Of a DNA stretch of 64,000 nt, positions 5,888-51,300 are shown piece after piece. The first letter of the stretch is position 1; every line of letters starts with the position of its first letter. The position numbers and the translations under genes are program-made. The stretch is taken from the NCBI GenBank assembly GCA_947496715.1, contig CANMDT010000002.1, positions 3,398-67,397 of the forward strand. The letters run 5' to 3'. This stretch comes from Myxococcales bacterium. Lineage in GTDB: Bacteria; Myxococcota_A; Bradymonadia; REDH01. The notes beneath the pieces are model-generated. The model did not search any database and was not told the origin of the DNA. It saw nothing but the letters and a program-made list of their open reading frames with translations.

Positions 5888-8800
5888 CTACGGCACGGTC
5901 CGCGCGAGGCGAAGGCCGAGGTTGCCGTAGCGAATGGTCGGCGCGCCAGAGTATCGACCCCCGGCACGCGCGTAGCGTGAGGGGTTGGACCACGACCCAC
6001 CGCGAAACGCCCGGGCGGAGCCTGTGCTGGCGCCGAGCGGGTCGGTCACCGTGCCAGGGTAGGTCACATTGTACCAGTCGCCCGTCCACTCCCACACATT
6101 GCCAAGCATGTCGAAGAGGCCAAAGCTGTTTGCAGTTTTGCCGCCAACCGTGCGCGACCGGTTTCCGCTGTTGATGCACCACCAGTCAATGCTTTCCAGA
6201 TTGGCCTGTGCTGTCGTGCAATCGGTAGTCGCACCGCTCAGGTTCCCCAGGTAGGTGGCCGTGGTTGTGCCGCCACGCGCCGCATACTCCCACTCGCTCT
6301 CGGTGGGCAGCCTGAAGCCCGTGCAGGTGAGGCCCGCGAAGGTGGCACCCGTGCAACCGCTGTGGATGCCATCCCTCCAGCCGTTGGCCGCGTCGGTGCA
6401 ACCTGTGAGCGTGTAGCAGGAGGCGTGCCCCTCTGCGGCGGACTTGGCGTTGGCAAAGGCCAAGGCTGCGTACCAATCCAGGTACTCCACAGGGCCGCTG
6501 TCGTTGGCGTTGGTGGTGGTCTGTACCGTGCCGGTGGTGGACTGGAAGAAGGAGGGGTTGGTGCCGCTGCTCAGCGCCTTCCACTGCCCCTGCGTCACCT
6601 CTGTCTGACCCATGAAGAAGCGACGAGAGATGGTCACGCTATGCTGCGTTTCGTCCGTGTAGCGGCCCACCTCGGTGGAGGGCGAACCCATGGTGAAGGT
6701 ACCGGCGGGGATGTAGTTCATGCCGATAGGCGCGCAGCGGTCGTTGGCCGTGCCCGTCGGGCCGGTGGCGCAGTTGCCGGAGGCACACTCGGTGTTGAGC
6801 GTGCAGGAGGTGCCTACGAATGAGCCAAAGGAGCATACCCCAACATTGACCTCGTACCCGCTCGCGCAGGCCGATGCGATGCAGCTGGCGTAGACGCTCC
6901 CCGTCCAGGTCTGCGTGCCGGCCGTCGTGTTGGCGGGCAGGGTCGAGCAGCTACGCGTGTTGCTCAGGCAGGCGCCGCCCTCCACATGGTAGGTCGCAGC
7001 GCACGTCGTCGCTGTGCAGCTGCCATAGACGCTGGTGCCGCTGTTCCACGTCTCAGTCGCCACTGTTGCGTTGGCGAGCGAGCAGCTCCGGGTGTCGCTC
7101 AGGCAGGCACCGCCCTCCACATGGTAGGAGGTGGCGCAGGTCGTCGCAGTGCAGCTCCCATAGGCGCTGGTGGCGCTGTTCCAGCTCTGGGTGCCAGCCG
7201 TCGTATTGGCAGGCATCGGAGAACAGGTGCGGGTGTCGCTCAGGCAGGCGCCGCCCTCCAGATGGTAGGAGGCAGCGCAGGCCGTAGCCTCGCAGCTGCG
7301 CCAGCCGGTCGCGTTGGCCGCCTCGACGGCCGCGGTCGCGTTCGCGGGCAACGCTGCGCAGCTACGCGTGACTGTCCTAGCGAGGCGCAGGCCGAGCGTG
7401 TTGACGCGGTTGCTCGGCGCGCCGCGGCTGCGAAACGCAGCGCGTTCTTGGTTTGCGCTGTAGAGCCACGCCCCACCGCGACGCAATCGCTCGGAGCCCG
7501 TCGAGGGACCCGTCGGGTCGGTCACCGTACCAGGGTAGGTGCCATACCAGTCGCCCGTCCACTCAAAGACGTTGCCCAGCATGTCGGAGAGGGCAAAGCT
7601 GTTCACAGCTTTAAGGCCCACCGCTTGGGTACGAGATCCACTGGTCTTGCACCACCAGGCGATGCCATCCAGATAGGTCTGTGATCTCGTGCAATTGGTA
7701 ACCGTACTGCTCAGGTTCCCCAGATAGGTGGCCGTGGCGGTACCGGCCCGCGCCGCACGCTCCCACTCGCTCTCGGTGGGCAGCCGGTAGCCCGTGCAGG
7801 TGAGGCCCGAGAAGGTGGCGCCTGAGCACCCGCTGTGGATACCGTCTTTCCAGCCGTTGGCTGCGTCGGTGCAGCCCGTGAGCGCGTAGCAGGCGGTGAG
7901 GCCCTCTGCCGCGGATCGGGCGTTGGCGAAGGCGGCTGCCGCATACCAGTCCATGTACTCCGCGGGGCCGCTGTCGTTGGCGTTGGCAGTGCTCTGTGTC
8001 CTGACGAGCGTAGACTGGAAGAAGGAGGGGTTGAGGCCGCCGGAGAGCGCCTTCCACTGCCCCTGCGTCACCTCTGTTTGATTCATGAAGTAGCTGCGAG
8101 AGAGGGTCACGCTGTGCTGCGTCTCGTCGGCAACGCGGCCTCGTTCCGTCGAAGGCGAACCCATGGTGAAGGTGCCGGCGGGGATGTAGTTCATGCCGGT
8201 CGGCGCGCACCGGTCGTTGGCCGTTCCCGTCGGGCCCGTGGCGCAGAAGCCCGAGGCGCACTGGGCGCTGAGCGTGCAGGCTGCGCCGAGGCTCCCAATG
8301 CAGGCGCCAGCGACAACGTTGTAACTGCTCGCACAGGTCGTCGCCGTGCAGCTCCCATAGGCGCTGCCCGTCCAGGTCTGGGTGCCGGCCGTCGTGTTGG
8401 CGGGCATGGGAGAGCAGGTGCGGGTGTCGCTCAGGCAGGCGCCGCCCTCCACATGGTAGGAGGTGGCGCAGGTCGTCGCGGTGCAGCTTCCATAGGCGCG
8501 GGTGGCGCTGTTCCACGTTTGCGTGGCGGCCGTCGTGTTGGCAGGCATCGGAGAACAGGTGCGGGTGTTGCTCAGGCAGGCACCACCCTCGAGGTGGTAG
8601 GAGGCCGCGCAGGCCGTGACCTCGCAGGCGCCCCAGCCAGTGGAATTGGCCGCCTCGACGGCAGTGGTCGCATTCGCAGGCAACACGGCGCAGCCGCGCG
8701 TGACAGTCCTCGCGAGGCGCAAGCCGACATCGCCGGTGCGGCCGCCTGGCGCACCATCGACGCGAAACGCAGCCCGCGCGTTGCTGGCGCTGTAGAAGTA

Positions 8801-11800: not shown

Positions 11801-14278
11801 GTGGACGCCGGTGCCGCAGGCGCAGGCATCGCTGCAGCTGTCTTCATTGTCTGTGTTTCCATCGTCGCAGACCTCGGAGGCATCGAGGATGCCGTCGCCG
11901 CAGATGTGGGTCGCGCCCGCCGCGATGGTGCAGGTCGCGCTGCAGACAGCGCAGGAGGCCGCGCCGTAGGCGCACTCCTCGGTCACCGTGTTGCCGTCGT
12001 CGCAGCCATCCACGCCCGCCTGCTCCACGCCGTCGCCGCAGGTGGCAATTGTGCAGACAGTGGTGCAGGCGTCGGTGGCGTCCAGGTTGCCATCATCGCA
12101 GGCCTCGCCGGCCTCCACTGCGCTGTTGCCGCAACCGGCTGCCACGCATGCCCCCGCGAGCAGGCTGTAACCCGCATCACAGCCCGTCGCCGCACAGGCG
12201 GTGTAGTCGCTGCCCGTCCAGCTCTGCGTTGCCGTCGTCGCATTCGCGACGGAGCAGCTCAGCGTGTCGCTGGCGCAGGCGCCCGCCTCCACATGGTAGG
12301 TGGCATCGCAGGCAGTCGCCGTGCAGGCGCCATAGGCGCCCCCGGTCCAGCTCTCGAAGGCTGCAGTAGCGTTCGCCGCCACGCAGCTGCGGGCGTTGCT
12401 GGTGCAGACGCCGCTCTCCACATGGTAGCCTGCCCCACAGAGGCAGCTGTTGGAGCAACTGTCGTCATTGTCTGTGTTGCCGTCGTCGCAGAACTCGGCT
12501 GCATCCAGGGTGCCGTCGCCGCAGAGGTCGGTCTCGCCCGCCGCGCTAACGCAGGTCGCATTGCAAATGGTGCAGGAGGCCGCGCCATAGTTGCACTCTT
12601 CGGTCAGCACATTCCCATCGTCGCAGCCCTCTACACCCGCCTGCACCAGGCCGTCGCCGCAGGCGGCCACCGCGCAGCTGGCCGTGCAGCCATCGGTCGC
12701 CACCAGGTTGCCGTCGTCGCAGGCCTCGCCAGCCTCCACCACGCTGTTGCCGCATCCGGCCGCAACGCAGGTTCCGTTGGAGAGGGTGAATGCACCGTAA
12801 CAGGCGCTGGCCACGCAGCTGTTCCAGCTGCTGCCGTTCCAAGTCTGGTCGCCCGCGCCGCCCGTCAGCAAGCAGCTCCGCGCGTCGCTCGCGCAGGCGC
12901 CGCTCTCTACATGGTAGCCCGTATCGCAGCTGCTGGGCGCGCAACTGCTCCAGGCCGAACCGAGCCAGGTCTGGCTCCCCGCGCCGTCGGCGAGGGTACA
13001 ACTCCGCGTGTCGAGCTCGCAGGCGCCGCTCTGCGCGTGGTAGCCGGCGTTGCAGCCCGTGAGGGAGCAGCTTCCCCAGGCACCGGCATTGTAGGTGCGG
13101 CTTCCCGTACCGTTCGCCACCGCGCAGGCGCCGGTGTTCGACACGCAGTCGCCACCCTCGAGGTGATGGGTGGGAAGGCAGCCCGACGCCGTGCAGGCGC
13201 CATACTCAGCGCCGGTCCATGTCTCCGTTGCGGCGGTAGCGTCGGCAGACGAGCAGGAGCGGGTGTCGCTCGCGCAGCTGCCGCTCTCCATGTGGTAGCC
13301 GCTGTTGCAGCTCACGATGGCACATGCCGCCCAGCTGCCCGCGGCGTAGCTCTGGCTGCCGATCCCGTTGGTGATGGAGCAGGCGCGCATGTCGCTCGCG
13401 CAGGCACCACTCTCCACATGTTCGCCGCTCGGGCAGCCACCGGGTGAGCAGAGGCCGGCCGTGCAGGCCAGGTCGGCGGCGCAGTCAGCCGTGGCCGCAC
13501 AGCTCTGCCCCTGGGTGCGGCAGCCGAGCGCTTCGTCGGTGGCGCCGTCGCAGTCGTTGTCGAGGCCGTCACAGAGCTCCGTCACGTTGGCCACAACGCG
13601 ACCGGTGAAGGTAAAGTTGCTGCCCGACCGGGCAAAGACCCAGTTGCGGACGCCGGCATTGGCGGGCGCAGACGAGGCTGGGCCTAGGTCGCCATAGGCC
13701 CAGGAGCCGAGGCCGCTCGAGGCACCAGGGATCACATCTCCGTTCTGCACGCCAAACCCTGTTGAGGGGACCAGCGCCTGGATCTGGGCAAAGACCTGCG
13801 TTTGCGGTGATGTGTAGAAGGAGCGGACCGTGACCGCGCCGCAGAAGAGGGGCGAGGCCAGATAGCCTTCGCATGCAGCGTCGAGCCCCGTGGTCCCCGT
13901 CACGAGCTCGAGCGAGTTGGCAGGCCCGGAGCCGGCCACACCGTCCTGCACGATGCTGAGGGTGCAGAGCCCCTGCGCCAGCCGACGGAGTCTCGGGTCG
14001 GACGAGGCCGCGGGATCGAGCTTCGTGAGGACCATCGCGCCATTGGCGGTTACGGTGCCGCGGAACTCCGCGAGCGTCAGCAGCCCAGACAGTGGCTCGG
14101 TAGCGGCCTCTGCAGAGGCGTCGCCCTGCCCGCCGTCTGGCAGCAGGATCGCCGCGTCGGGGATGAAGAGCCCACCATCGGGCGCCGTTGGCAGCGCGGC
14201 GGTAGGAGCCTCATCCTGAGCGCAGGCGCCGAGGAGGAGAGCAAAGGGCAGGAGGCGTGCAACAGAGCGCAGCAGCAT
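5888..14278 (-). CDS. Giant secreted lipoprotein (2796 aa). Four tandem FGE-sulfatase (SUMF1 / formylglycine-generating-enzyme family) domains are each preceded by Cys-rich ~35-aa repeats. N-terminal region carries Myxococcus-type cysteine-rich repeats.
   Basis: Signal peptide with lipobox LLGAC. Four copies of the FGE-family signature (…GYRLPTESEWEYAARGG… / …NSFGLxDMLGNVWEWTxDW… / …RGGSW…GFRL…). Many 'CxxGYHxExGACxSDTRSC' repeats. CGDGxxxxGxExCDDGN myxobacterial Cys-rich repeats. CDGLDNDCDGATDE motif. Confidence 0.85.
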   Translation of the reverse strand: MLLRSVARLLPFALLLGACAQDEAPTAALPTAPDGGLFIPDAAILLPDGGQGDASAEAATEPLSGLLTLAEFRGTVTANGAMVLTKLDPAASSDPRLRRLAQGLCTLSIVQDGVAGSGPANSLELVTGTTGLDAACEGYLASPLFCGAVTVRSFYTSPQTQVFAQIQALVPSTGFGVQNGDVIPGASSGLGSWAYGDLGPASSAPANAGVRNWVFARSGSNFTFTGRVVANVTELCDGLDNDCDGATDEALGCRTQGQSCAATADCAADLACTAGLCSPGGCPSGEHVESGACASDMRACSITNGIGSQSYAAGSWAACAIVSCNSGYHMESGSCASDTRSCSSADATAATETWTGAEYGACTASGCLPTHHLEGGDCVSNTGACAVANGTGSRTYNAGAWGSCSLTGCNAGYHAQSGACELDTRSCTLADGAGSQTWLGSAWSSCAPSSCDTGYHVESGACASDARSCLLTGGAGDQTWNGSSWNSCVASACYGAFTLSNGTCVAAGCGNSVVEAGEACDDGNLVATDGCTASCAVAACGDGLVQAGVEGCDDGNVLTEECNYGAASCTICNATCVSAAGETDLCGDGTLDAAEFCDDGNTDNDDSCSNSCLCGAGYHVESGVCTSNARSCVAANATAAFESWTGGAYGACTATACDATYHVEAGACASDTLSCSVANATTATQSWTGSDYTACAATGCDAGYSLLAGACVAAGCGNSAVEAGEACDDGNLDATDACTTVCTIATCGDGVEQAGVDGCDDGNTVTEECAYGAASCAVCSATCTIAAGATHICGDGILDASEVCDDGNTDNEDSCSDACACGTGVHLEGGLCTSDTRSCLLANGEGTEQWTGNSYNGICTLESCNDGYHIAVDSCEADELSCTLANATAATRSWDSDTESYGSCTATACAASYHLESAACVANVRVCTLANGTATETWNSDTSSYGSCTPGICNSGYHVESGACLSNSRDCSLANASVATETWTGSAYGACTATTCASGYILSAGACGLQPIIGNSCTANAQCATGFCATGPAGTANDRCAPTGMNFIPAETFTMGSPATEVGRVADETQHSVTISRSFFMNLTEVTQGEWKALSGGLNPSWFQSTTVTTQSTANANNAGPAENMDWYAAVAFANARSAAEGLASCYTLAGCTDVANGWKDGIHSGCTGATFSGLTCTGYRLPTESEWEYAARAGTATATYGGNLSGTVTNCTTAQANLAGIAWWCINAGGRTQAVGGKTANSFGLYDMLGNLWEWTADWYGTYPGTVTDPLGATTGVYRVYRGGSWQYIATGEKAAFRAWGNGAPVNRFNTLGFRLSRTVARGCAALPANATAAIEAATATDWGACEATACSASYHLEGGACLSDTRNCSLPNATLATQAWNSATSAYGSCTVTTCATSYHLEGVACLSDTRSCSPLPANTTAGTQTWNSGTSAYGSCNATTCAATYHVEDGACLSDTLSCTPLPDNATASAQSWNSVTSSYGTCNATACDATYHVEGGACLSDTRSCSPLPANTTSGTQTWTGIAYGSCTATACASGYDVNLGVCSLGSSVGTSCTANAECASGVCATGPAGTENDRCAPTGMNYIPAGTFTMGSPSTEVGRAINETQHSVTLTRSFFMGQTEVTQGQWKAISGGTNSSCFQSTTGTACTTSNANNLGPAEYLDWYAALAFANAKSAAEGLTACYTLTGCTDAANGWKDGIHTGCTAASFAGLTCRGYRLPTESEWEYAARGGTTTATYLGNLSGTVTGCTTAQANLDGIAWWCKNAGSRTQAVGGKTANSFGLSDMLGNVWEWTGDWNGTYPGTVTDPLGVTTGTRRVARGGSYFYSASNARAAFRVDGAPGGRTGDVGLRLARTVTRGCAVLPANATTAVEAANSTGWGACEVTACAASYHLEGGACLSNTRTCSPMPANTTAATQTWNSATRAYGSCTATTCATSYHVEGGACLSDTRTCSPMPANTTAGTQTWTGSAYGSCTATTCASSYNVVAGACIGSLGAACTLSAQCASGFCATGPTGTANDRCAPTGMNYIPAGTFTMGSPSTERGRVADETQHSVTLSRSYFMNQTEVTQGQWKALSGGLNPSFFQSTLVRTQSTANANDSGPAEYMDWYAAAAFANARSAAEGLTACYALTGCTDAANGWKDGIHSGCSGATFSGLTCTGYRLPTESEWERAARAGTATATYLGNLSSTVTNCTRSQTYLDGIAWWCKTSGSRTQAVGLKAVNSFALSDMLGNVFEWTGDWYGTYPGTVTDPTGPSTGSERLRRGGAWLYSANQERAAFRSRGAPSNRVNTLGLRLARTVTRSCAALPANATAAVEAANATGWRSCEATACAASYHLEGGACLSDTRTCSPMPANTTAGTQSWNSATSAYGSCTATTCATSYHVEGGACLSDTRSCSLANATVATETWNSGTSVYGSCTATTCAATYHVEGGACLSNTRSCSTLPANTTAGTQTWTGSVYASCIASACASGYEVNVGVCSFGSFVGTSCTLNTECASGNCATGPTGTANDRCAPIGMNYIPAGTFTMGSPSTEVGRYTDETQHSVTISRRFFMGQTEVTQGQWKALSSGTNPSFFQSTTGTVQTTTNANDSGPVEYLDWYAALAFANAKSAAEGHASCYTLTGCTDAANGWRDGIHSGCTGATFAGLTCTGFRLPTESEWEYAARGGTTTATYLGNLSGATTDCTTAQANLESIDWWCINSGNRSRTVGGKTANSFGLFDMLGNVWEWTGDWYNVTYPGTVTDPLGASTGSARAFRGGSWSNPSRYARAGGRYSGAPTIRYGNLGLRLARTVP
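5900..11400. repeat. Four imperfect tandem DNA repeats (~1.4-1.6 kb each) inside the giant gene, one per FGE-domain module
   Basis: Alternative-frame minus-strand ORFs beginning at ~6584, ~7950, ~9389 and ~11009 give near-identical translations (MEG…QPLLLPVH.RH.T.H.QRQ…). This shows nucleotide-level periodicity. The protein has four FGE modules. Confidence 0.75.
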
Positions 14279-35049: not shown

Positions 35050-36213
35050 TCAATCTCCGTAGGCCACCGCGACCGCCGAAACGCGCCAGCCGCCCGACTG
35101 CGCCACTGCCTCGATGAAGAAGCCAAAGCTGTGCTCGCCCGCCGTCGGCATGGCCACCTCGAAGAGGCGGGGCGGGGTCACGCTGCCCGGGCACCAGTTG
35201 GCCCGGGGCGCTCGCACGCTGCTCATGGAGCCCATGGGGTTCTCGAGGCAGAAGGTGATGGGCTGGCCGAGGTCGCTGTTGGTGGTCTCGGTGCAGAGGG
35301 TGTCGCAGTCCTGGCGCCAGGGGCGGTAGACGGTCTCGTCGCCGTCGACCAGGACATGGTGGTAGCGTTTGCAGAACTCCTCGGCGGGCCCGATGCAGGT
35401 GGAGGAGGAGTCGGCCGTGCCGCCGTGGCCGGTGACCCGATACTGGACCTCGGCGCGGGTGGTGCCCTCGGGGAGGGTGAAGGGGAAGTCGAGCTGGTCG
35501 TAGGGCTCGGGGTAGGTGGCGTTGTAGAGGGGGAAGACGCCGAGCACCTTGCGGGGGGCGGGGCCGTCCTGGATTTCGAGGCGGCCGGTGACGTTCCAGC
35601 CGCCGTTGCTGCCGCTCACCTGCCCTGCGCCGTCGGCGTAGGTGGTGATGTGGGTGCGGAAGCGGTGGCTGCCGGGCAGACCGTTGGCGATGTCGGTGAC
35701 GTCGATCTCGAAGCGCAAGGGGCCGCCGAAGGGGGTGATGGCGCGAACGAGCTCGATGGCGGGGGGCGCCTCGGGGTTCTCCGGGTCATCCATGGTGACC
35801 TCGTAGTTGCGGTCGAAGGCGTCGCAGAGCGGGGGCCAGTTCTGGCCTGCGGGCGGGCGGTCGTCGAGCCAACGGGAGAAGGGGAAGCAGGTGGTTTCGA
35901 GCTCCATGACGAGGGTGACCCGCTCGAAGGGGCCGGTGCCCCAGTCGGCGGTGGCGACCACATTCTGGAAGTTGGGCTGGGAGCCGTCGCTGGTGATGCG
36001 GGCGCTGTCCCAGAGGGTGAGGGTGCGGGGGGCGACGGTGGTGTCGGCCTGCGCGGAGCCCTCGGTGTCGGCGGTGGTGTCGGCGGCCGAGCCCTCGGTG
36101 TCGACGGTGGTGTCGGCCGCGGTATCGGTTGTGCTGGCGGTTGTGTTGGTCGCTTCTTTGGTGTCGCCGCAGGCGGCGAGGAGCAGGAGGGGCAGGACGA
36201 GCAGACGACGCAT
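35050..36213 (-). CDS. Secreted lipoprotein of unknown function
   Basis: Start chosen at MRRLLVLPLLLLAACGD (lipobox LAAC). Acidic Thr/Asp linker then a ~300-aa domain. The overlapping plus-strand ORF (35131-36705) is antisense-like junk. A faint resemblance to PNGase-F-type beta-sandwich proteins is an impression only. Confidence 0.6.
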   Translation of the reverse strand: MRRLLVLPLLLLAACGDTKEATNTTASTTDTAADTTVDTEGSAADTTADTEGSAQADTTVAPRTLTLWDSARITSDGSQPNFQNVVATADWGTGPFERVTLVMELETTCFPFSRWLDDRPPAGQNWPPLCDAFDRNYEVTMDDPENPEAPPAIELVRAITPFGGPLRFEIDVTDIANGLPGSHRFRTHITTYADGAGQVSGSNGGWNVTGRLEIQDGPAPRKVLGVFPLYNATYPEPYDQLDFPFTLPEGTTRAEVQYRVTGHGGTADSSSTCIGPAEEFCKRYHHVLVDGDETVYRPWRQDCDTLCTETTNSDLGQPITFCLENPMGSMSSVRAPRANWCPGSVTPPRLFEVAMPTAGEHSFGFFIEAVAQSGGWRVSAVAVAYGD

Positions 36214-36289
36214 GAGTGGCTCCGCAGGGAGTGGGTGGGCGTGCAAAGATGGGGCGAGCGTGGCCGCATGGCAAGGCTGGCAGAGAGCG

Positions 36290-36345
36290 ATGCCATGTTT
36301 CGGGGCAGGCCAAAAGTTTGCTCCGATCGGCAGGCGCGGGCGGCG
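36290..36345 (+). promoter_or_regulatory. ~56-bp conserved motif, copy A (cagagagcgatgccatgtttcggggcaggccaaaagtttgctccgatcggcagg)
   Basis: Near-identical copy at 37397-37452 in the same orientation. Each lies ~60-100 bp upstream of a plus-strand gene start. Contains the 8-bp palindrome ccgatcgg. Confidence 0.4.
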
Positions 36346-36445
36346 CTGCGACCGTTCCGCCGCCCCGCTCCAAAAATCTGCAGGCCCATCCGCAACAACG
36401 GGCCGCAGACGCCGATAACCGACCATCACAACTTCGTGAGGTCAC

Positions 36446-37360
36446 ATGTCGCGTCCACCCTTCCCCCCGTTTCCAGCTCCACCTCCATCTCCGCCGCCGC
36501 CGCCGTCTCGCGCCGAACGCAACCCGCACGAGCGGCGGAGCGTCACCGTCACGCGTGCAGCTCTGCCGGCCGGCGCGCTGCACGAGCAGTATGTGGTGCC
36601 CCGCAACAGCCTCTTCATCGACCTCGTCGTCTGGGGCAGAGCGGCCAACTCGCCCGTTTGGGGCCCCTTCCGCCCCTTCTTTGCGGGGCGGCGGGTGGCA
36701 GTTGAGTTCTGTAGCGGCCACCTGAGCCTCGAGATGTTCAACAGCTACCTCGGCGAGGCGCAGTTCGTGCGCCCCAAGCGTACCCTGCCAGGCGAGGCCC
36801 GACTCTTCATCCTCTGCAACAGGCGGCCAAAGGCCCGACTCAAAGAACTCGCGCGCTTTGTGACCCCCGGCCCCGTCGCCGGCTCCTGGTTTCTCGACCT
36901 CGGCCCGGCCGGCCAGGTCATCATCGCGGTGGCCACCGAACTGCCCGTCCAGCCCGGCACAACCGCGCTCCGCTTCACCGCCCCAAAAACCTCGCAAGCC
37001 GAGTATTTTCAACGTTATGATGACCTCTTGAACGATCCGACATTGTCGGTCAAACTACGCAACACCATCTTGATGGAGGAACACATGTTGAGCAGCGATC
37101 GCACCGATCCAACCGTTGACAGCAAAGCCCGCCGCGAGGCCCGCAGCTTGCTGGACCAGTTCAAAACCTGGAAAGCGAAAGAGACGAAACGGTTGAAGGC
37201 GGAGAGCAAGGCCGAGGGCAAGGCCGAGGGCAAGGCCGAGGGCGTGGAGGACCTCCTCGCAGCGGCCGCAGCCTACCTGCCGCCCGAGACGATCGAGGCG
37301 CTCCGCAAGCAGCGCGATCCCGTCGCGATCGCCTTGGCGATGGCAGGGGCGGCGCGGTAG
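36446..37360 (+). CDS. Hypothetical protein (N-terminal Pro-rich stretch may not be translated; true start uncertain)
   Basis: ORF with coding-like composition in the central and C-terminal part (…LFIDLVVWGRAANSPVWGPF…). KAEG x3 repeat near the C-terminus. No recognisable domain. Confidence 0.4.
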   Translation: MSRPPFPPFPAPPPSPPPPPSRAERNPHERRSVTVTRAALPAGALHEQYVVPRNSLFIDLVVWGRAANSPVWGPFRPFFAGRRVAVEFCSGHLSLEMFNSYLGEAQFVRPKRTLPGEARLFILCNRRPKARLKELARFVTPGPVAGSWFLDLGPAGQVIIAVATELPVQPGTTALRFTAPKTSQAEYFQRYDDLLNDPTLSVKLRNTILMEEHMLSSDRTDPTVDSKARREARSLLDQFKTWKAKETKRLKAESKAEGKAEGKAEGVEDLLAAAAAYLPPETIEALRKQRDPVAIALAMAGAAR

Positions 37361-37396: not shown

Positions 37397-37452
37397 ACGG
37401 GGCCAGCAGAGAGCGATGCCATGTTTCGGGGCGGGCCAAAAGTTTGCGCCGA
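37397..37452 (+). promoter_or_regulatory. ~56-bp conserved motif, copy B
   Basis: cagagagcgatgccatgtttcggggcgggccaaaagtttgcgccgatcggcagg, 61 bp upstream of the AMIN/coiled-coil gene start. Confidence 0.4.
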
Positions 37453-37512
37453 TCGGCAGGATCCGTAGAAGTTGGCAGACCGATTTCTATCCCCGCACCG
37501 TTCCGCTGCCGC

Positions 37513-40500
37513 ATGCGATCCAACCTCACCCGACTGCTGCGCGCCGGTACGCTCTCCCTCACGCTGCTCGCCGGCGCCTCGCCTGCGGCCGCCGCGGAGG
37601 TGAACGACCTGACAGCGGTGGAGCTGCGGCATGCGCCGGACGAGACGGTTATCCGGGTTCGGGGCGACGAGGCGCCGACCTATTCGGTCTTTGCGCTGCG
37701 GAGCCCGCTGCGGCTCTTTGTGGACATCTCGCGGAGCACGGCGGCCGGTGCGTTGGCGCTTCCGAAGCCCGACGGCATCCGGGTTTCGGCGCTGGAGCTG
37801 GAGCGTGAGCCCGACGGGCAGCGCGACACGCAGCGTCTGGTGCTGACGCTGGGCGCGGGCGTGCTGTATGATGTGACCGGCGCGGGGAACGACCTCATCA
37901 TCAAGCTGGTGGGCGGGCCGGTCGCGGGAGGCTCAGAGCAGTCGGCGGCGGCGCGCGAGGCGGCGGAGCGTGTTCGGGCGCTGGAGCAGAAGCTCGATGG
38001 CGAGCAGCGCGAGCTCGCCGAGCGTCGGGCGGAGCTGGCCGCGCGGGAGCGCGACCTGGAGGCTGCGCTGACGGCCAGCCGCGAGAAGGAGAAGTCGGCG
38101 AGCGCGAGCGCCGGGTCGAACGCAGAGGAGCTGGCTCGTCTGGCGAAGGAGCGCGAAGCCTTGGCAGCTCGGCAGCAGGCGCTGGAGGCGGAGCGGAAAC
38201 AGACGCAAGAGCGGGCCTCGGGGCTGGCGCGCGACAACGACGAGCTGGCGCGGCTCAAGGGCGACCTAGAGAAACAGCGGGCGGAGCTGGCCGCGCGCGA
38301 CCGTGAGCTCAAGACGGCGTCTGCCGCGCTGGAGAGCCGGAACGACGAGTTGACGCGGCAGCAGGAGACGGTTCGGGCGCAGCAGGCGGAGCTGGAGCAG
38401 CAGAGGCGGGCCCAGGCTGCCGGCGACCAGAAGCGGACGGCGGAGCTCGCGCAGGAGCGCGACCGGCTGGCGGCCCAGTTGGCGGCGCGCGATGCGCAGA
38501 TTGCTGACCTGGAGGCGGCACGTTCGCGGCTCGAGGGTGAGCGGAACGCGCTGGTGGTTCGCTCGAAGCAGGATCAGGCGACAATGGCTCGTCTGGGGAC
38601 ACTGCAGAACGAGCTGGCGAACCGCGACGCGGAGCTCCGGAAGCAGGGCGAGGCGCGCGACGCGCTGGCGAAGCAGTCTGCGGAGGCGGAGCGGAGCGGC
38701 AAGCAGGCCTCTGCGAGCCTGATGGAGGAGCTGAAGCAGCGCGACGAGGCGATCGCCAAGCTGCGCGAGGAGCGTGAGTCGCTCGCGGGTGCACGGGCCG
38801 AACGGGATGCGCTGGCGGGACAGCTGACGGCGCTTCGGTCGGAGGTGGAGTCGCTGCAGGGCGAGGTGAAGCGGCGCGAGGAGCAGCTTGGTTCGATGGA
38901 CCGGGCGCGGTCGGAGGTTGCGGCGGAGCGTGAGCGGCTGGTGGCGGCGCAACAGTCGCAGACGACGCAGGACACGGCCGCGAAGCAGAGGGCCGACGAG
39001 GCGCTGGCGAAGCTGACAGCCGACCTCAAGCGGCGCGACGCGGAGATGGTGTCGCTGCGGAACGAGCAGACGGTGCTGCGCGACTCGATCGCGACGCGGG
39101 ATGCCGACCGAACTCGGCTGGCACAGCTCGAGGCGGCGCTGAACTCGGAGCGGGCGCTGCAGGCGGAGCGGCAGAAGGCCGACGAGGCTGCGAAGCAGGA
39201 GAGCGAGCGGGCGAAGACCGAGGCGGAAGAGAACCGCCGGTTGCTGGAGCAGGCGCGGCGCGATGCAGCGCAGGCACAGGCGGAGCGGCAGAAGGCCGAA
39301 GAGGCTGCAGCGGCGGCGCGGCGCGATGCGGAGCGGGCCCGGCAGGAGGCTGGCGCGGGCGTCAAGGAGCGCGACGCGCGGGTTGCCGAGGTGGAGCGGA
39401 GGCTCGGCGAACAGCAGGCGGCTGCGCTGACGGCGGAGGCCGAGCGGGCAAAGGAGCGTGAGCGTGCGGCGCAAGAGCAGGCACGGTTGACGGAGGAGGC
39501 GCGGAAGGCACGCGAGCAGGCCGATGCGGCTCTTGCAGATGCAGCGCGGCAGCGGTCTGGCGCGCTGGCAGCGAAGGAGCAGGCGGAGGCGACGCTGGCG
39601 GCGCGCCGGAGCGACGAGGCAAAGGCGAAGGCCGAGGCCGAACGGGCCCAGGCGGAGGCCGAGCGGGTGCTAGTGGAGGCCGAGACGACGCGGCGTACCG
39701 CGAAGAACTCGGCCGACGAGGCAACCAAGGTGCGCGAGGCCGGCGAGCGCGAGCGGCTTGCGACCGAGGCGACGCGCAAGGCTGCCGAGACGCTAGCGAA
39801 CGCTGCAAAGGCGCGTGATGAGGCGGAGCGTGCACAGCGTGATGCGGCCGAAGCGCTGGCGCGGCGTACCGATGCCGAGGCGACGGCGGCGCGCGAGGTA
39901 GCCGCGAGCCGCGCTGAGGTAGAGCGGCTGCGTCGCGAGCTGGAGGTGTTGCGGGCAGGACGAGCAGCGGCAGAGGCTGCGTCGGCGCAGCAGATGGCGG
40001 AGGCCAAGGCGGAGGCGGAGCGGGCCAAGGCGGAGCTCTCCGCGGCGAAGTCGGCGCAGGCCGAGGCAGAGCGCCGGGCCGCAGCGCAGGCGGAGCAGTC
40101 GAAACAGGAGGCGGCGGAGGCCAGGGCGGAGGCAGAGCGGGCCAAGCGGGAGACCGAGGCACTCCGCGCACAGCAGGCGCAGGGCAGCTCGAGCAGCCAG
40201 GCGCAGAACAGCGCTGCGAAGGCCGAGACCGAGCGGGCAAAGGCCGATGCCGACAAGGCGCGCAGAGAGGCTGCAGCGGCACAGGCGGAGCTCGAGAAGG
40301 CACGCAAAGAGGCCGAGGCGCTCCGCGCACAGCAGGCGCAGGGCAGCTCGAGCAGCCAGGCGCAGAACAGCGCAGCGCAGGCCGAGACTGAGCGGGCAAA
40401 GGCCGACGCCGAAAAGGCGCGCAGAGAGGCTGCAGCAGCGCAGGCTGAGCTCGAGAAGGCGCGCAAGGAAGCCGAGGCGCTCCGCGCACAGCAGGCTGAG

Positions 40501-41610
40501 CTCGAGAAGGCACGCAAAGCGGACGAGGCACTCCGCGCACAGCAGGCGCAGGGCAGCTCGAGCAGCCAGGCGCAGAACAGCGCTGCGAAGGCCGAGACCG
40601 AGCGGGCAAAGGCCGATGCTGACAAGGCGCGGAAGGAGGCCGCAGAGGCGCAGGCTGAGCTCGAGAAGGCACGCAAAGAGGCCGAGGCGCTTCGGGCGCA
40701 GCAGGCGCAGGGCAGCTCCAACAGCCAGGCGCAGAGCAGCGCTGCGAAGGCCGAGACCGAGCGGGCGAAGGCCGACGCAGACAAGGCGCGGAGGGAGGCT
40801 ACAGAGGCACAGGCGGAGCTCGAGAAGGCACGCAAAGAGGCCGAGGCGCTCCGCGCACAGCAGACGCAGGGAAGCTCCAACAGCCAGGCACAGAACAGCG
40901 CTGCAAAGGCCGAGACCGAGCGGGCAAAGGCCGACGCCGACAAGGCGCGCAGAGAGGCTGCAGCGGCACAGGCGGAGCTCGAGAAGGCGCGCAAAGAGAC
41001 CGAGGCGCTTCGGGCGCAGCAGGCGCAGGGCAGCTCCAACAGCCAGGCGCAGAGCAGCGCCGCGCAGGCCGAGACTGAGCGGGCAAAGGCCGACGCCGAC
41101 AAGGCGCGCAGCGAGGCTACCGCGGCACAGGCCGAGCTCGAGAAGGCACGCAAGGAGACAGAGGCGCTCCGCGCACAGCAGGCTGAGCTCGAGAAGGCAC
41201 GCAAAGAGACAGAGGCGCTCCGCGCACAGCAGGCTGAGCTCGAGAAGGCACGCAAAGCGGACGAGCAGGCGCGGGCAGCAGAGCAGCGGTTTGCACGGGA
41301 GCAAGAGGCCAGCAGGCTGGAGCAGGAGCGGGCAGCGCGCGCAGCGGAGGCGAGCAGGCTCGAGCAGCAGAAGTCCTCGAACGGTCAGATGAGCGCTAGG
41401 GAGCAGTATGAACTTGAGGTCCGGGCGCGGATCGAGGCGGAGGAGCGGGCCGGTGAGGCAGATCGCAGGGCACGCGATGTAGGCGGTGCAGCGCCCGCGG
41501 CCGGTGGCCAGCAGGCGGCGCCGCTCTACCCCACAGGCGGGCGGCGGCGGACCTGCAAGGCGGTCTCGTCGGACGGCACCGAGCGTCGGATTCCCTGTCC
41601 GCGTAACTGA
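37513..41610 (+). CDS. Secreted AMIN-domain protein with ~1200-aa coiled-coil of Ala/Glu/Arg/Lys/Gln-rich repeats
   Basis: Signal peptide MRSNLTRLLRAGTLSLTLLAGASPAAAAEV. AMIN-like N-terminal beta domain (…PLRLFVDISRST…). Then heptad-rich sequence including six 53-aa repeats (…ALRAQQAQGSSSSQAQNSAAKAETERAKADADKARREAAAAQAELEKARKEAE…). Confidence 0.8.
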   Translation: MRSNLTRLLRAGTLSLTLLAGASPAAAAEVNDLTAVELRHAPDETVIRVRGDEAPTYSVFALRSPLRLFVDISRSTAAGALALPKPDGIRVSALELEREPDGQRDTQRLVLTLGAGVLYDVTGAGNDLIIKLVGGPVAGGSEQSAAAREAAERVRALEQKLDGEQRELAERRAELAARERDLEAALTASREKEKSASASAGSNAEELARLAKEREALAARQQALEAERKQTQERASGLARDNDELARLKGDLEKQRAELAARDRELKTASAALESRNDELTRQQETVRAQQAELEQQRRAQAAGDQKRTAELAQERDRLAAQLAARDAQIADLEAARSRLEGERNALVVRSKQDQATMARLGTLQNELANRDAELRKQGEARDALAKQSAEAERSGKQASASLMEELKQRDEAIAKLREERESLAGARAERDALAGQLTALRSEVESLQGEVKRREEQLGSMDRARSEVAAERERLVAAQQSQTTQDTAAKQRADEALAKLTADLKRRDAEMVSLRNEQTVLRDSIATRDADRTRLAQLEAALNSERALQAERQKADEAAKQESERAKTEAEENRRLLEQARRDAAQAQAERQKAEEAAAAARRDAERARQEAGAGVKERDARVAEVERRLGEQQAAALTAEAERAKERERAAQEQARLTEEARKAREQADAALADAARQRSGALAAKEQAEATLAARRSDEAKAKAEAERAQAEAERVLVEAETTRRTAKNSADEATKVREAGERERLATEATRKAAETLANAAKARDEAERAQRDAAEALARRTDAEATAAREVAASRAEVERLRRELEVLRAGRAAAEAASAQQMAEAKAEAERAKAELSAAKSAQAEAERRAAAQAEQSKQEAAEARAEAERAKRETEALRAQQAQGSSSSQAQNSAAKAETERAKADADKARREAAAAQAELEKARKEAEALRAQQAQGSSSSQAQNSAAQAETERAKADAEKARREAAAAQAELEKARKEAEALRAQQAELEKARKADEALRAQQAQGSSSSQAQNSAAKAETERAKADADKARKEAAEAQAELEKARKEAEALRAQQAQGSSNSQAQSSAAKAETERAKADADKARREATEAQAELEKARKEAEALRAQQTQGSSNSQAQNSAAKAETERAKADADKARREAAAAQAELEKARKETEALRAQQAQGSSNSQAQSSAAQAETERAKADADKARSEATAAQAELEKARKETEALRAQQAELEKARKETEALRAQQAELEKARKADEQARAAEQRFAREQEASRLEQERAARAAEASRLEQQKSSNGQMSAREQYELEVRARIEAEERAGEADRRARDVGGAAPAAGGQQAAPLYPTGGRRRTCKAVSSDGTERRIPCPRN
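40140..41270. repeat. In-frame 159-bp tandem DNA repeats (~6 copies, >90% identical) within the coiled-coil gene
   Basis: ctccgcgcacagcaggcgcagggcagctcgagcagccaggcgcagaacagcgc recurs at 40162, 40321 and ~40540 onward with 159-bp period. Confidence 0.8.
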
Positions 41611-41708: not shown

Positions 41709-42215
41709 ATGGCAGCACCCCACAACGCAGATGAGACCTTCACGCAGTTTGTCGCAGCCCATGGCGCGATGGCGCGGCGGGTTGCCTGGCGGCTGATGGG
41801 TGGCGACGGCGCGGCGGCCGACGATGTGGTGCAGAACGCCTTTGTGAAGGCGCACGCCAAGTTCCACACGGTGTTGCAGGAGGGGGCGCGCGAGGCCTGG
41901 TTCCGGCAGATCGTGGTGCGCGAGGCGCTGAACCAGCTCCGGTGGCTCGGGGTGCGGCGACGGGTCGCGCAGCTGGCGGGATTCGAGGATCGGGCGCAGC
42001 CGGCTGTGGCGCGCGACAGCGGCGCGGTGGCCCGGATCGAGGCGGCGGTGGCGGCGCTCTCGCCGCAGCAGCGGGCCATCTTTGTGCTCGTCCATCTTGA
42101 AGAACAGACCGTCGCCGAGGCTGCGGCCCAGCTCGGCATCGCGGAGGGGACGGCGAAGAGCCACCTGCACCGCGCCCTCACCTCTCTGCGAACCCAACTC
42201 GAGGATCTCCGATGA
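41709..42215 (+). CDS. ECF-family RNA polymerase sigma factor (sigma-70 regions 2 and 4)
   Basis: Region 2 …DDVVQNAFVKAHAKF… and region 4 HTH …QTVAEAAAQLGIAEGTAKSHLHRA… 168 aa. Confidence 0.85.
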   Translation: MAAPHNADETFTQFVAAHGAMARRVAWRLMGGDGAAADDVVQNAFVKAHAKFHTVLQEGAREAWFRQIVVREALNQLRWLGVRRRVAQLAGFEDRAQPAVARDSGAVARIEAAVAALSPQQRAIFVLVHLEEQTVAEAAAQLGIAEGTAKSHLHRALTSLRTQLEDLR

Positions 42216-42715
42216 AGCGAAACGAAGACGAGGCAGTGACTGCAGCGCAGCTCCGGCAGCTGCGTGATGGCTGGCAGCCGGCAGGCGAACTTCCCGCCGA
42301 CTATGCTGCGCAGGTGGTGGCGGTTTCGATGCGGCGGCGGCGGGTGCAGCGCATCTCGCTCTCGGTGCTGCTTGCGCTCGTCGCAGTGGTCCCGGTGGCC
42401 TGGCAGCTCCGTGATGCGCCCGAGGTAGTCGCGGAGGCATCGGCGCCGGAGATCGCGCCGATGGTGGTGACAGGGGAGGTTCTCGAGGGGCCAGAGGTTG
42501 TTTCGCCGGTGATCGCAGCGGTTGCTCCGCAGCCACCGGAGCCGGCCGCGCAGGAGCCTGCCCGCAGCCAGGAGCCCGACCTGGTGGCAGAGGCGGTGGT
42601 GCTGCGCCCGGAGCGGTTGCTGACGTCGCGCCGGAGCTACCGCGACTCGTTCCGCGAGCTGGGCGAAGAGTATGACGGGATCGCCGATATCTATTTTGAT
42701 GACACAGCGAGGTAA
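42212..42715 (+). CDS. Putative membrane-spanning anti-sigma factor
   Basis: Start overlaps the sigma stop (ATGA). One TM segment (ISLSVLLALVAVVPVAW) after a ~45-aa cytoplasmic N-terminus. Classic sigma/anti-sigma gene order. No sequence motif beyond topology. Confidence 0.55.
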   Translation: MKRNEDEAVTAAQLRQLRDGWQPAGELPADYAAQVVAVSMRRRRVQRISLSVLLALVAVVPVAWQLRDAPEVVAEASAPEIAPMVVTGEVLEGPEVVSPVIAAVAPQPPEPAAQEPARSQEPDLVAEAVVLRPERLLTSRRSYRDSFRELGEEYDGIADIYFDDTAR

Positions 42716-42794
42716 CCCGAAAGGGTACCGAGCGTTGTCTTCCTGTTGTTCAACGAATTCCGGGCCGATGGCCCACACTGCTCGAGGAGGAATC

Positions 42795-43397
42795 ATGCGT
42801 CACGCCACTTTCCGTACTGCTTCGCACCTGCTGCTGGGTGCCCTGCTCTTTTCGGCTGCAGGTATCTCGACGGCCGAGGCCGGCCAGCGCCGCGGGCCGC
42901 CCCCCGCTCCGATGGGGCCTCCGCCCGGCCAGGCTGAAGGTCGTGGCCAGGGTGAGATGAACCCGCGCGAAGGGCTCCGTCTGCTCAAGGAGCATGCGAA
43001 GGAGCTGGGCATCAGCGAGGCGACGCTGAACCAGATCAAGGAGCTGGCGCGGAAGGGTCGCGACAGCCGCGGCGCGCTCGACGACAGGCTCGACGATGCG
43101 CGCGACAAGATGCGCGACCTCATGCAGAGCGACAGCCCGGATCGGGCGAAGGTGATGGCAGCCATCGAGGAGGCGGGCCGCGCAGAGATTGCGCTGCGCC
43201 AGCACGATGTGGAGGTGCTGCTTCAGATCCGCGCGCTGCTGACGCCGGCGCAGCGGGAGGCGATGAAGAAGCTGATGCAGGAGGAGCGGGGCGGACGGGG
43301 CCCGCGCGAAGGCCGAGTCGATGGGCCGGGACGGGGCGAAGGGCGCGGTGATGGACCGGGACGGGGCGAAGGGCCGCGCGGAGAGGACGACAACTAG
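42795..43397 (+). CDS. Periplasmic LTXXQ-motif protein (Spy/CpxP/ZraP family)
   Basis: Start at MRHATF with GAGGAGG RBS. Signal peptide. LTXXQ motif (…IRALLTPAQREAMKKLM…). Gly/Arg-rich tail. Confidence 0.7.
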   Translation: MRHATFRTASHLLLGALLFSAAGISTAEAGQRRGPPPAPMGPPPGQAEGRGQGEMNPREGLRLLKEHAKELGISEATLNQIKELARKGRDSRGALDDRLDDARDKMRDLMQSDSPDRAKVMAAIEEAGRAEIALRQHDVEVLLQIRALLTPAQREAMKKLMQEERGGRGPREGRVDGPGRGEGRGDGPGRGEGPRGEDDN

Positions 43398-49105: not shown

Positions 49106-50224
49106 ATGGCGCGGCTTTCACTGGCCCTGATGTTTGCCAGCTCGCTCGGCGGTTGCTCTGGCGACGCACGCTCGGAGACGCCTGCGCCGGTTGCGGCCAT
49201 CGAGGCCAACGATGGCTCTGCAGCGCCCGTTGCGCCGCCGGTCGCTCCGCCCCCAACGCCCGCGCCCATCTGGACCGAGAGCGGGCCGCTGACGCCGGAG
49301 GCCAAGGAGATTCTCCGCTCCATTGTCGCCGATCCGGCGCCGCCGGCGCTCGTGCTAGGCTCCCACTACTGGGTCTCCAACGAGTCGGCCCACGATGTGT
49401 GGCGAGAGACCATCGGCAAGCTCGGCGGTGCACTCGCCGGCGTGGGCACAGACCAGCTCTACCTGCTCGCAGGCTGGCAGGAGACGTCGCTGCTCCTCGC
49501 GCTCGACTTCGATGCCGAGGTGGTGCGGGTGCATGAGCTCTACGGTATCGCCTTTGCGAAGGCCGAGACGCCGGAGGCCTTCCTCCAGCTCTGGCGGGAT
49601 GCGGCGCGGGATGCGGGGTCGTGGGACGAGCTGCTGGCCGCTGCCGATAGCGCCGAAGCGGTGCGGAAGCGGCAGCACCGCACGCTCGACGTCGCGGGGA
49701 CCATCATCTCTGCCCGGTTGGGTCAGGTGAAGCGCCGGTATGCGAAGCTCGGAATCCCCTGCTTCCTCACCGATGCGGCGCAGTATGCGAAGGTGCGGAC
49801 GCTCTGGCAGGAGGGCCGCGTGGTCGCCCTCCGAGGAGACCTCACGGCAACCTCGGCCATGCTGACGGCTGCGGCAGCGATGCGGAAGCTGGGCGTGCCC
49901 CTCCGCACCCTCTACCTCTCCAACGCGGAGAAATACTTCGACTACAGCCCGGACTTCCGCGCCAACATCATCGCCCAGCCCTTCGACGAAAAGTCGCTCA
50001 TCCTGCGCACCCGCCACTCGCCGCGGATGGGCGCCGTGGAGGGCGATGTCTATCACTACAACACCCAGACGGGCGCCAACTTCGTCGCCTGGATGAGGGA
50101 CTCGACCATCCCAACCTCCTTTGCGCTCCTCAAGCGGCGGGTAGAAGAGACGCCGCCCGGCAAGAGCCGTATCGATGCACTCCCCACAGCGCCCGCCTCT
50201 CCTGCAACACCGACCAAACCATGA
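49106..50224 (+). CDS. Hypothetical lipoprotein (first gene of a two-gene operon with the FGE lipoprotein)
   Basis: Start chosen at MARLSLALMFASSLGGC (lipobox). No recognisable catalytic motif. Stop overlaps the next start (ATGA). Confidence 0.5.
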   Translation: MARLSLALMFASSLGGCSGDARSETPAPVAAIEANDGSAAPVAPPVAPPPTPAPIWTESGPLTPEAKEILRSIVADPAPPALVLGSHYWVSNESAHDVWRETIGKLGGALAGVGTDQLYLLAGWQETSLLLALDFDAEVVRVHELYGIAFAKAETPEAFLQLWRDAARDAGSWDELLAAADSAEAVRKRQHRTLDVAGTIISARLGQVKRRYAKLGIPCFLTDAAQYAKVRTLWQEGRVVALRGDLTATSAMLTAAAAMRKLGVPLRTLYLSNAEKYFDYSPDFRANIIAQPFDEKSLILRTRHSPRMGAVEGDVYHYNTQTGANFVAWMRDSTIPTSFALLKRRVEETPPGKSRIDALPTAPASPATPTKP

Positions 50225-51300
50225 CCCAGCGCCCGCTTCGAATGACCGCACGCACCATCGTCCCTTCGTGCGCCGCCTGGGGGACGCTGCTGCTGATCAC
50301 GCTCGCGGCAGGCTGCGCGTCGAGCGTCGGAGAGACACCGCCACCCGCTGCCCAACAAGCGCCGGAGGCGCAGCCGACCGTTGCAACAGGTACAGGCTCG
50401 GGAGCCTCCGTTGCGCCACCCGCTGAGAAGCCGTTGGAGGGCCCGCCCGGCGTTGCGGCGCCCGCGGTTGTCGACTGTGGCGCTACGCCTGCAGACATGG
50501 CCTGCGTGCCAGGTGGTTGGCACCCGCGCGGCGTCGACGAAGATCGCGACGGCTGCAAACAGGCAGACGAGCCGAGGTCGGGGCCTGCCTCGATGCCCAA
50601 GGCGTTGGTCTGGAACCAGAGCTTCTGGATGGACAGGTATGAGGTGACCATCGGCGACTACGGCCAGTGCATGCGCGCGGGCAAATGCCCCAAGGCAGCT
50701 CCGCTCTATCAGGACTTCAGTGACCCCAAGCAGCCCATGACCGGCGGCAACTGGTACGACGCAGCAGCCTACTGCACATGGCGTGGCAAGCGGCTCCCGA
50801 CCGAAGCGGAGTTCGAGCTGGCGGCACGGGGACCGGAGGGTGAGAAGACGCCCTTTGGAAACGAGCTGGTGAGTTGTGAGAACGCCGTCATCAAGGACGA
50901 GCGCGGACGCAGCTGTGGCATCACGAAGCGCGGCTCTCAGCCCGAGAAGGGGAAGGTGCTTCCGGTCGGCTCACGCGCGGCGGGCCGCTACGGCATCTTC
51001 GACCTCGTCGGAAATGCGGAGGAGTGGGTCGCCGACTGGTGGAGCCCCTCGTGGGAGTCGTGTGGCGAGGCCTGTCTGGGCATCAACCCCACGGGGCCCT
51101 GCGGCGGCGGTGCGGCGCCCTGCAAGGGTCACTCGAACAAGACGGTCCGAGGAGGGTCGTGGTACTGGGGATCGGAGTGCGCAACCGGCATCCGGCGGCG
51201 GCGTCATGTGGCCTCCAACAGCCCTCCGCATCACTTTGGCTTCCGCTGCGCGGCAGACCAGGGCAGCGCGGTGCGGCTGCCGAACGGCGGGACGAACTAG
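50221..51300 (+). CDS. FGE-sulfatase (SUMF1 / formylglycine-generating-enzyme family) domain lipoprotein
   Basis: Signal/lipobox …ITLAAGCAS. Family signatures WYDAAAYCTWRGKRLPTEAEFELAARG, GIFDLVGNAEEWVADWW and RGGSWYWG…HFGFRCAAD. Confidence 0.85.
   Translation: MTQRPLRMTARTIVPSCAAWGTLLLITLAAGCASSVGETPPPAAQQAPEAQPTVATGTGSGASVAPPAEKPLEGPPGVAAPAVVDCGATPADMACVPGGWHPRGVDEDRDGCKQADEPRSGPASMPKALVWNQSFWMDRYEVTIGDYGQCMRAGKCPKAAPLYQDFSDPKQPMTGGNWYDAAAYCTWRGKRLPTEAEFELAARGPEGEKTPFGNELVSCENAVIKDERGRSCGITKRGSQPEKGKVLPVGSRAAGRYGIFDLVGNAEEWVADWWSPSWESCGEACLGINPTGPCGGGAAPCKGHSNKTVRGGSWYWGSECATGIRRRRHVASNSPPHHFGFRCAADQGSAVRLPNGGTN

Follow-up and report, generated by a model that had tools for sequence, protein, structure and literature searches.

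Of the address labels that direct proteins to septal and polar peptidoglycan, the AMIN domain is the best understood. The AMIN domain of AmiC binds septal peptidoglycan, and the AMIN domains of PilQ are needed for septal and polar recruitment (PMC10653833; PMC2572700). The combination of an AMIN domain and a TolA-like charged helix in delta-proteobacteria is class viii of de Souza et al. (2008), which was catalogued but not characterised (PMC2572700). A gene encoding a protein of this general type, neither an enzyme nor a secretin, is present in a stretch of 64,000 nucleotides (the window) of a Myxococcales bacterium assigned to the Bradymonadia (assembly GCA_947496715.1, contig CANMDT010000002.1, positions 3,398 to 67,397), with a G+C content of around 70% across its length. 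The gene is an open reading frame (ORF) on the + strand, from ATG 37513 to the stop codon ending at 41610, these coordinates being exact, and encodes 1365 amino acids (aa). The protein is read here, with a probability of about 0.5, as a Sec-exported, soluble, periplasmic tether with two ends, anchored to peptidoglycan and polymorphic in length, of a freshwater, predatory-type bacterium of the Bradymonadia (Myxococcota).

The AMIN domain was not found by a Pfam scan of the full-length 1365-aa protein and surfaces only when the N-terminus is scanned alone, with 18.2-19.2 bits for PF11741 (gathering cut-off 20.5). Nor did any homologue emerge when the N-terminal sequence alone served as query in a word-indexed search. 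An exhaustive HMMER search with the N-terminal domain found 223 relatives at E<=0.001; all of those aligned (48 of 48) match AMIN, with a best E of 2.8e-14, and in all relatives the domain lies 10-40 residues from the N-terminus. The profile of the aligned relatives matches AMIN1 of M. xanthus PilQ (3jc8) with E=3.6e-39, E. coli AmiC (4bin) with E=1e-7, and other PilQ AMIN domains too. The AlphaFold2 model made with a multiple sequence alignment (MSA) shows nearly all beta-strands, with a predicted local distance difference test (pLDDT) of 86.3 and a predicted template modelling score (pTM) of 0.78; it supersedes the alignment-free model, whose beta domain was unreliable (pLDDT 50-60). The best Foldseek matches of the MSA-based model are 3jc8 PilQ (TM-score 0.68) and 4bin AmiC, whose AMIN domain is a beta-sandwich of two four-stranded sheets (TM-score 0.66, root-mean-square deviation 2.2 A over 115 aligned columns), and the invariant Pro and Arg residues of the AMIN family are retained. 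The AMIN assignment therefore stands on the family profile and the predicted fold.

Upstream of the AMIN domain, the protein begins with what reads as a Sec signal peptide (Table 1), in which there is no lipobox Cys. An alternative in-frame TTG is found at 37444; ATG 37513 is preferred as the start, because the signal peptide is then typical at the N-terminus and the orthologues begin alike, the ATG being kept in L001-L003, L018 and L020. The first-pass annotation, made from the sequence alone, had proposed a secreted protein with an AMIN domain, and both parts are supported, the first by the signal-peptide-like N-terminus and the second by profile and predicted fold. The close relatives of the locus are freshwater metagenome-assembled genomes (MAGs): L001, from Lake Erken, and L002 are labelled delta-proteobacteria only and L003 is labelled Bradymonadia, and the three show 95-99% identity over the first 170 residues. 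The orthologue P0001 (387 aa) is 97% identical up to around residue 333 and unrelated after it; either its contig is chimeric or the allele is disrupted. The ratio of non-synonymous to synonymous substitution rates (dN/dS) against the orthologues, given by region in Table 1, is lowest in the AMIN domain and highest in the repeats. Purifying selection thus acts over the full length of the protein, and the gene is expressed and constrained, not a ghost ORF of GC-rich DNA.

The stalk that follows is free of Pro from residue 137 to residue 1327 (around 1190 residues), with scattered glycines only, and AlphaFold2 predicts a helix at residues 141-199 with pLDDT >90. The very long helical stalk of the first-pass annotation is supported, and the Ala/Glu/Arg/Lys/Gln-rich composition that it describes is confirmed. 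Its enormous heptad region holds for residues 141-560 (around 420 residues), where strongly hydrophobic residues occupy 48% of the a/d positions and 3% of the others, with 16% hydrophobic residues overall. It does not hold for residues 561-1250 on periodicity analysis: residues 561-881 show no heptad signal (power 3.7 at period 3.5) and residues 882-1250, which contain the repeats, show a power of 1.5 at the same period and 5% hydrophobic residues, forming a charged helix with hinges. Both segments are around 40% charged with 27% Ala, and in composition they resemble TolA domain II, unlike a classical coiled coil. Nor is the coiled coil built from the repeats, as had been described, since these contribute 369 of the approximately 1190 helical residues. 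An Ala-zipper register within each unit (a/d positions ATAAAAALAALQ) is suggestive, although with Ala at 44% it does not reach statistical significance, and the NCBIfam matches to SMC and ASRP were discarded as generic coiled-coil noise (17-21 bits, with cut-offs of 300-729). No meaningful match came from PDB sequence searches in which the helical regions and the C-terminus were the queries. In the L023 gene (2-2347), the helix after the array shows an extra 13-aa duplication (RLEQERAARAAEAS), so that small-scale repeat gain also happens outside the tandem units.

The protein ends in a flexible linker and a cationic loop (Table 1) that contains the sole two Cys of the 1365 residues, Cys1348 and Cys1362, from which we infer a disulfide closing a loop of 13 residues with a putative binding role. 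The last 22 residues are 100% conserved in L018, L020, L021 and L023, three of these showing non-synonymous divergence (pN) of 0 at a synonymous divergence (pS) of 0.22-0.27, and the fragments P0167-P0170 retain the loop with one or two substitutions each. Three distant relatives lacking a secretin, all complete, end in C[RK]xV...[VI][PS]CP(R): P0009 (547 aa) and P0015 (534 aa), with helical linkers, and P0048 (512 aa), with a Pro-rich linker of PEPEP type. A subfamily was defined by an N-terminal AMIN domain, no secretin and, following a cluster of Arg or acidic residues, a C-terminal C-[RK]-x-V-x(8-19)-[VI]-[PS]-C-P(-R); the window protein, P0009, P0015 and P0048 all show this AMIN/linker/Cys-loop arrangement. 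None of the remaining ORFs in the window and in loci L001-L015 has the motif, and a common sorting signal was rejected on this ground. Conserved synteny of the subfamily was also rejected. P0009 (L016 2508-4151) and P0015 (L017 8001-9605) share their neighbours: upstream, a lipoprotein of giant size with Cys-rich repeats, and downstream, a protein of the PF13480 (Acetyltransf_6) family. No homologues of these are found in the window.

The tandem array encodes residues 882-1250 of the stalk. All six units and three sub-units are in frame; each 53-aa unit shows a helix of around 42 residues rich in Ala/Glu/Lys/Arg and a hinge, QGSS(S/N)SQAQ(N/S)S, so that a Gly/Ser/Asn/Gln-rich break (QGSSSSQAQNS) recurs in each unit. 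The lengths of 53 and 17 aa are not divisible by 7. The number and frame of the six 159-bp repeats agree with the first-pass annotation, and the DNA identity above 90% that it gave does not: pairwise identity is 85-95% (mean 90.0%), exceeding 90% in 6 of the 15 pairs. Synonymous codon differences outnumber non-synonymous ones in every unit pair.

An exact look-up of the protein encoded by the downstream sigma factor gene gave 15 contigs of the same species, several of which span the array; the same look-up with the 1365-aa protein gave no match, and a metagenome scan with its C-terminus gave one contig only, beginning inside the gene. The related short-read contigs mostly break inside or beside the array. 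The window shows 6 x 53 aa and 3 x 17 aa. L018 encodes a complete protein of 1136 aa with 2 x 53 and 1 x 17, and L020 a complete protein of 1119 aa with 2 x 53. Two partial genes span the array: L021 with 2 x 53, and L023 with 53 + 17 + 53. The L001 contig ends within the array after at least 3 x 53. The two complete alleles differ from the window by 229 residues (4 x 53 + 17) and 246 residues (4 x 53 + 2 x 17). The contigs of the window, L018, L020, L021 and L023 carry an identical sigma factor protein; L001, whose contig ends within the array, is the exception. The longest exact repeat in the window array is 96 bp, below the k of 141 of the short-read assemblies of the relatives, so that repeat collapse is not forced. 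The hinge variants GNTKSESVNS and GSSNSKAQNS are common to units within a lineage and missing from the window, and some unit pairs within one genome are more alike than same-position units between genomes; together these indicate turnover of the array. Repeat number, then, does appear to vary between strains of one species, with two units on spanning short-read contigs and six in the window, as had been anticipated, and the locus behaves as a variable-number tandem repeat (VNTR).

In the two-ended tether, the AMIN head, whose nearest counterpart is PilQ AMIN1 of the same lineage, would fix the protein to peptidoglycan, by analogy most likely at septal or polar sites. The first 420 or so stalk residues would form a heptad coiled coil, probably oligomerising the protein, and the next 770 or so a helix of Ala/Glu/Arg/Lys/Gln, poor in hydrophobic residues, that includes the hinged 53-aa units. 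At the far end, the Gly/Ala/Pro linker, the Arg cluster and the invariant 13-residue disulfide loop may present a second binding site, with an anionic surface or some component of the outer membrane or envelope as candidate partner. Recombination in the array would shift stalk length between strains in steps of 53 and 17 residues. A tether is recognised by ends that are conserved and a middle that can be exchanged and vary in length, and the tether role already suggested in the first-pass annotation fits the conserved Cys loop and the relatives that keep both ends with another type of linker. At around 0.15 nm per residue, the approximately 1190 residues of the extended stalk reach around 175 nm. 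The periplasm is around 25-30 nm wide, so that the stalk has to run parallel to the wall or double back on itself instead of crossing the periplasm at a right angle. Several points weigh against the tether. The signal peptide and the disulfide rest on a reading of the sequence; the two-unit alleles come from short-read assemblies; a dN/dS of around 0.08 in the helices is below what is expected of a mere spacer, so that they may carry specific interactions; and the gene neighbourhood, with its sigma factor trio, offers no functional clue and is not shared with P0009 or P0015. The natural allelic series, with two to six units, two defined ends and a span of around 35 nm in contour length, makes the purpose of tether length a testable question.

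The alternative nearest to the tether starts from PilQ. Among the best 150 cluster representatives, around 47 are PilQ secretins of 730-2076 aa, and, close orthologues aside, most of the AMIN-domain relatives found in genomes are PilQ secretins; in the genomes of Bradymonadia and other Myxococcota, PilQ itself is the match. The pilQ gene of Persicimonas (L014 9809-13306) is the last gene of a pilMNOPQ operon and encodes, in order, AMIN, a heptad coiled coil of around 365 aa, a second beta domain, STN/N0, Secretin_N and the secretin. A heptad coiled coil of 365-500 aa between AMIN1 and the N0/secretin core is found in PilQ of Bradymonadia and other Myxococcota (L005, L006, L008, L009, L012-L014 and P0072). 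The longest PilQ representative, of 2076 aa, shows around 1500 aa between AMIN and N0, and the PilQ of L009 has tandem repeats of its own (EEADAKAxQDRKRAQ x4). A PilQ-like ORF of L010 (9860-11605), a chromosome-level MAG of 7.5 Mb, ends after around 540 residues in an Arg/Pro-rich, out-of-character tail, which suggests a frameshift, by pseudogene formation or assembly error. The literature searched gave no description of the coiled coils that separate AMIN1 from the secretin core in these PilQ proteins; they bear on the anchoring of the type IVa pilus machine in predatory bacteria and may matter more than the protein of the window.

The window protein looks like the AMIN and coiled-coil front of such a PilQ with another back end. 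It may be a paralogue of PilQ without a secretin, derived from a partial pilQ duplication (AMIN1 and coiled coil) and accessory to the type IVa pilus machine, sharing the septal or polar peptidoglycan sites of PilQ or co-assembling with its coiled-coil collar, and so modulating the place or number of the machines. The predominance of PilQ among the relatives is in line with this, and so is the L014 coiled coil, about as long as the heptad part of the stalk. Sequence similarity between the two coiled coils was looked for and not found, composition-corrected BLASTP aligning AMIN only. Secretin (PF00263), N0/STN and Secretin_N are missing from the protein in a scan that detects them in L014 PilQ and P0072, no pil genes are present within the 64 kb of the window, and neither the 770 extra helical residues nor the Cys loop has a counterpart in PilQ. 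A pilus accessory is therefore unlikely. Equally doubtful is a bolder version, in which a PilQ offshoot without secretin forms long polar cables anchored to peptidoglycan, as a copolymer with the PilQ collar of Bradymonadia or as an independent scaffold, with a reach tuned by the repeat units and a loop that latches an outer-membrane partner; were it true, it would be a new kind of periplasmic structural element, tied to pilus-machine placement in predatory bacteria.

A periskeletal polymer, whose coiled coils assemble into filaments or a mesh on the peptidoglycan and shape or stiffen the poles, is quite unlikely. CrvA of Vibrio reportedly forms a periplasmic filament of this sort, and a long helical rod that could not fit upright in the periplasm, under strong sequence constraint in its helices, would suit such a role; two-thirds of the stalk, however, lacks a hydrophobic seam for lateral packing, a spread from two to six units is tolerated, Pfam scans show no homology to CrvA or bactofilin, and no known polymerisation motif is present. 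The cytoskeleton-like filament named in the first-pass annotation met with neither support nor contradiction. Very unlikely is a fibrillar adhesin or antigen of the cell surface, with the stalk pointing outwards, the disulfide loop as adhesive tip and the repeats giving antigenic or length variation. The stalk would then be comparable to Gram-positive M-like proteins, and the loop to the D-region loop of pilins. Repeat-number polymorphism and hinge variants between strains speak for it, as does the mention of a terminal Cys loop in PilA (PMC6060248). Against it, AMIN domains act on periplasmic peptidoglycan (PMC2572700), family scans detected neither a sorting signal nor an autotransporter domain or other module for translocation across the outer membrane, and the mostly synonymous differences between repeats indicate purifying, not diversifying, selection. 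The first-pass annotation had also offered a periplasmic ruler. A long helical protein that binds peptidoglycan at one end might stand perpendicular and set envelope width, as engineered length variants of Lpp are said to do, but an extended length of around 175 nm in a periplasm of around 25-30 nm, alleles 229-246 residues (around 35 nm) apart within one species and the lack of a lipid anchor make this highly improbable. Last, an assembly artefact or a non-functional ORF, to which the frequency of spurious long ORFs in high-GC genomes and the breakage of related contigs within the array could point, is refuted for the gene itself by a dN/dS of 0.05-0.19 in its frame, by full-length orthologues in independent assemblies, by an in-frame array whose units differ mostly at synonymous sites and by the shortness of its longest exact internal repeat, the copy number of six being that of the assembly.

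Table 1. Positions of the features of the AMIN-domain protein gene and of its surroundings in the window
Feature	Position	Strand	Remarks
60-nt direct repeat, two copies	36275-36334 and 37401-37460	+	93% identical; second copy just upstream of gene
Putative signal peptide, residues 1-28	37513..37596	+	Basic n-region, hydrophobic core, AAA/E cleavage motif; MRSNLTRLLRAGTLSLTLLAGASPAAAA/EV
AMIN domain (peptidoglycan-targeting beta-sandwich), residues 29-135	37597..37917	+	Profile, predicted fold; dN/dS 0.00-0.06
Heptad coiled coil, residues 141-560	37933..39192	+	Normalised periodicity power 34 at 3.5 residues; dN/dS 0.07-0.08
Charged Ala/Glu/Arg/Lys-rich helix, residues 561-881	39193..40155	+	8% hydrophobic, 42% charged, no Pro; dN/dS 0.08-0.10
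Units 1-2, 159 bp / 53 aa each	40156..40473	+	dN/dS of repeats 0.17-0.19
Internal 51-bp / 17-aa sub-unit	40474..40524	+	EALRAQQAELEKARKAD
Units 3-6, 159 bp / 53 aa each	40525..41160	+	Differences mostly synonymous
Two terminal 51-bp / 17-aa sub-units	41161..41211 and 41212..41262	+	Tandem Repeats Finder (TRF): period 51, 2.5 copies, 97% matches
Post-array helix, residues 1251-1322 (72 residues)	41263..41478	+	86-94% aa identity in orthologues; pN 0.04-0.10
Gly/Ala/Pro-rich flexible linker, residues 1323-1343	41479..41541	+	Pro back at 1328, 1337, 1340
Cationic C-terminal Cys loop, residues 1344-1365, and stop codon	41542..41610	+	RRRTCKAVSSDGTERRIPCPRN; net charge +5
Extracytoplasmic function (ECF) sigma factor	41709-42215	+	98 nt after the AMIN-domain protein gene
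Putative anti-sigma factor, 167 aa	42212-42715	+	4-nt overlap with sigma factor gene; no family match
LTXXQ/Metal_resist (CpxP/Spy-like) periplasmic protein	Third of trio within 41709-43397	+

Downstream of the gene, the order sigma factor, putative anti-sigma factor and LTXXQ protein is kept in all close relatives, and the trio resembles an envelope-stress module; co-transcription of the AMIN-domain protein gene with it is possible. Upstream, the core GGCCAAAAGTTTGC.CCGATCGGCAGG of the 60-nt element is invariant in L001-L003, and the element may act as a promoter or in regulation, or may mark a junction of recombination. A sigma-54 promoter within it was rejected, since three mismatches are required and the two-mismatch consensus is not enriched (70 observed, 73 expected), and Rfam gave no match in the window. 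The two copies bracket a strain-variable cassette, which contains a 304-aa ORF in the window, L002, L003 and, at least partly, L020. In L018 (5534-6346) the cassette shows instead a Y1 (IS200/RAYT-like) transposase flanked by palindromes like repetitive extragenic palindromic (REP) elements, and in L001 (1-3874) the core of the element borders directly on unrelated DNA. The pattern looks like a hot spot of recombination or insertion directly upstream of the gene. The 304-aa ORF (36446-37360, +) is a real gene, judged from a pN/pS of 0.35-0.38 in its frame, compared with values above 1 in both other frames. No family match was found for it, and it shows in-frame indels, including a change of one unit in a 12-bp (KAEG) tandem repeat (37196-37243). 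Beside it, a gene on the - strand (35050-36429) encodes a protein with a PNGase-F C-terminal domain and a lipoprotein-like N-terminus; a 33-bp tandem repeat of this gene (36033-36119) encodes a Thr/Asp/Ala-rich linker. Further away, a gene on the - strand (5888-14278) encodes a protein of 2796 aa with four FGE-sulfatase (formylglycine-generating-enzyme-like) domains and Cys-rich repeats of DUF4215/MopE type, and another FGE-sulfatase protein gene (50221-51300) adjoins that of a DUF7790 protein.

Compared with known systems, the protein shares with class viii the signal peptide, the N-terminal AMIN domain, the long charged helix and the taxon (Myxococcota, formerly delta-proteobacteria). It differs from it in its 1365 residues, a separate heptad segment of 420 aa, the polymorphic 53/17-aa array and the C-terminal Cys loop. 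PilQ (3jc8; L014) gives the best match of its AMIN domain in both sequence and fold, and PilQ of Bradymonadia also combines AMIN1 with a heptad coiled coil of 365-500 aa, but the protein lacks N0/STN, Secretin_N, the secretin domain and pilMNOP neighbours, and its C-terminus is different. With AmiC (4bin) it has the AMIN fold in common, without the amidase domain. TolA domain II is a long periplasmic helix rich in Ala/Lys/Glu/Asp, in a protein that has an inner-membrane anchor and a globular domain III and is encoded in a tol-pal cluster. The protein of the window is like it by composition only, as a helix poor in hydrophobic residues that joins two ends, a comparison also drawn in the 2008 paper; it has no membrane anchor, domain III or tol-pal genes nearby, and family scans and the PDB search gave no TolA family match or sequence homology. 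FimV/HubP/TspA proteins, which are tied to polar pilus-machine assembly, show a LysM peptidoglycan-binding head, a long acidic repeat region, a transmembrane segment and a cytoplasmic tetratricopeptide repeat (TPR)-like domain. They have in common with it a periplasmic head of peptidoglycan-binding type and a very long region containing repeats; its head is AMIN instead of LysM, and no transmembrane segment or TPR-like domain was found in it. Its general architecture is thus already known, and the protein is a well-delimited addition to a catalogued, unstudied class.

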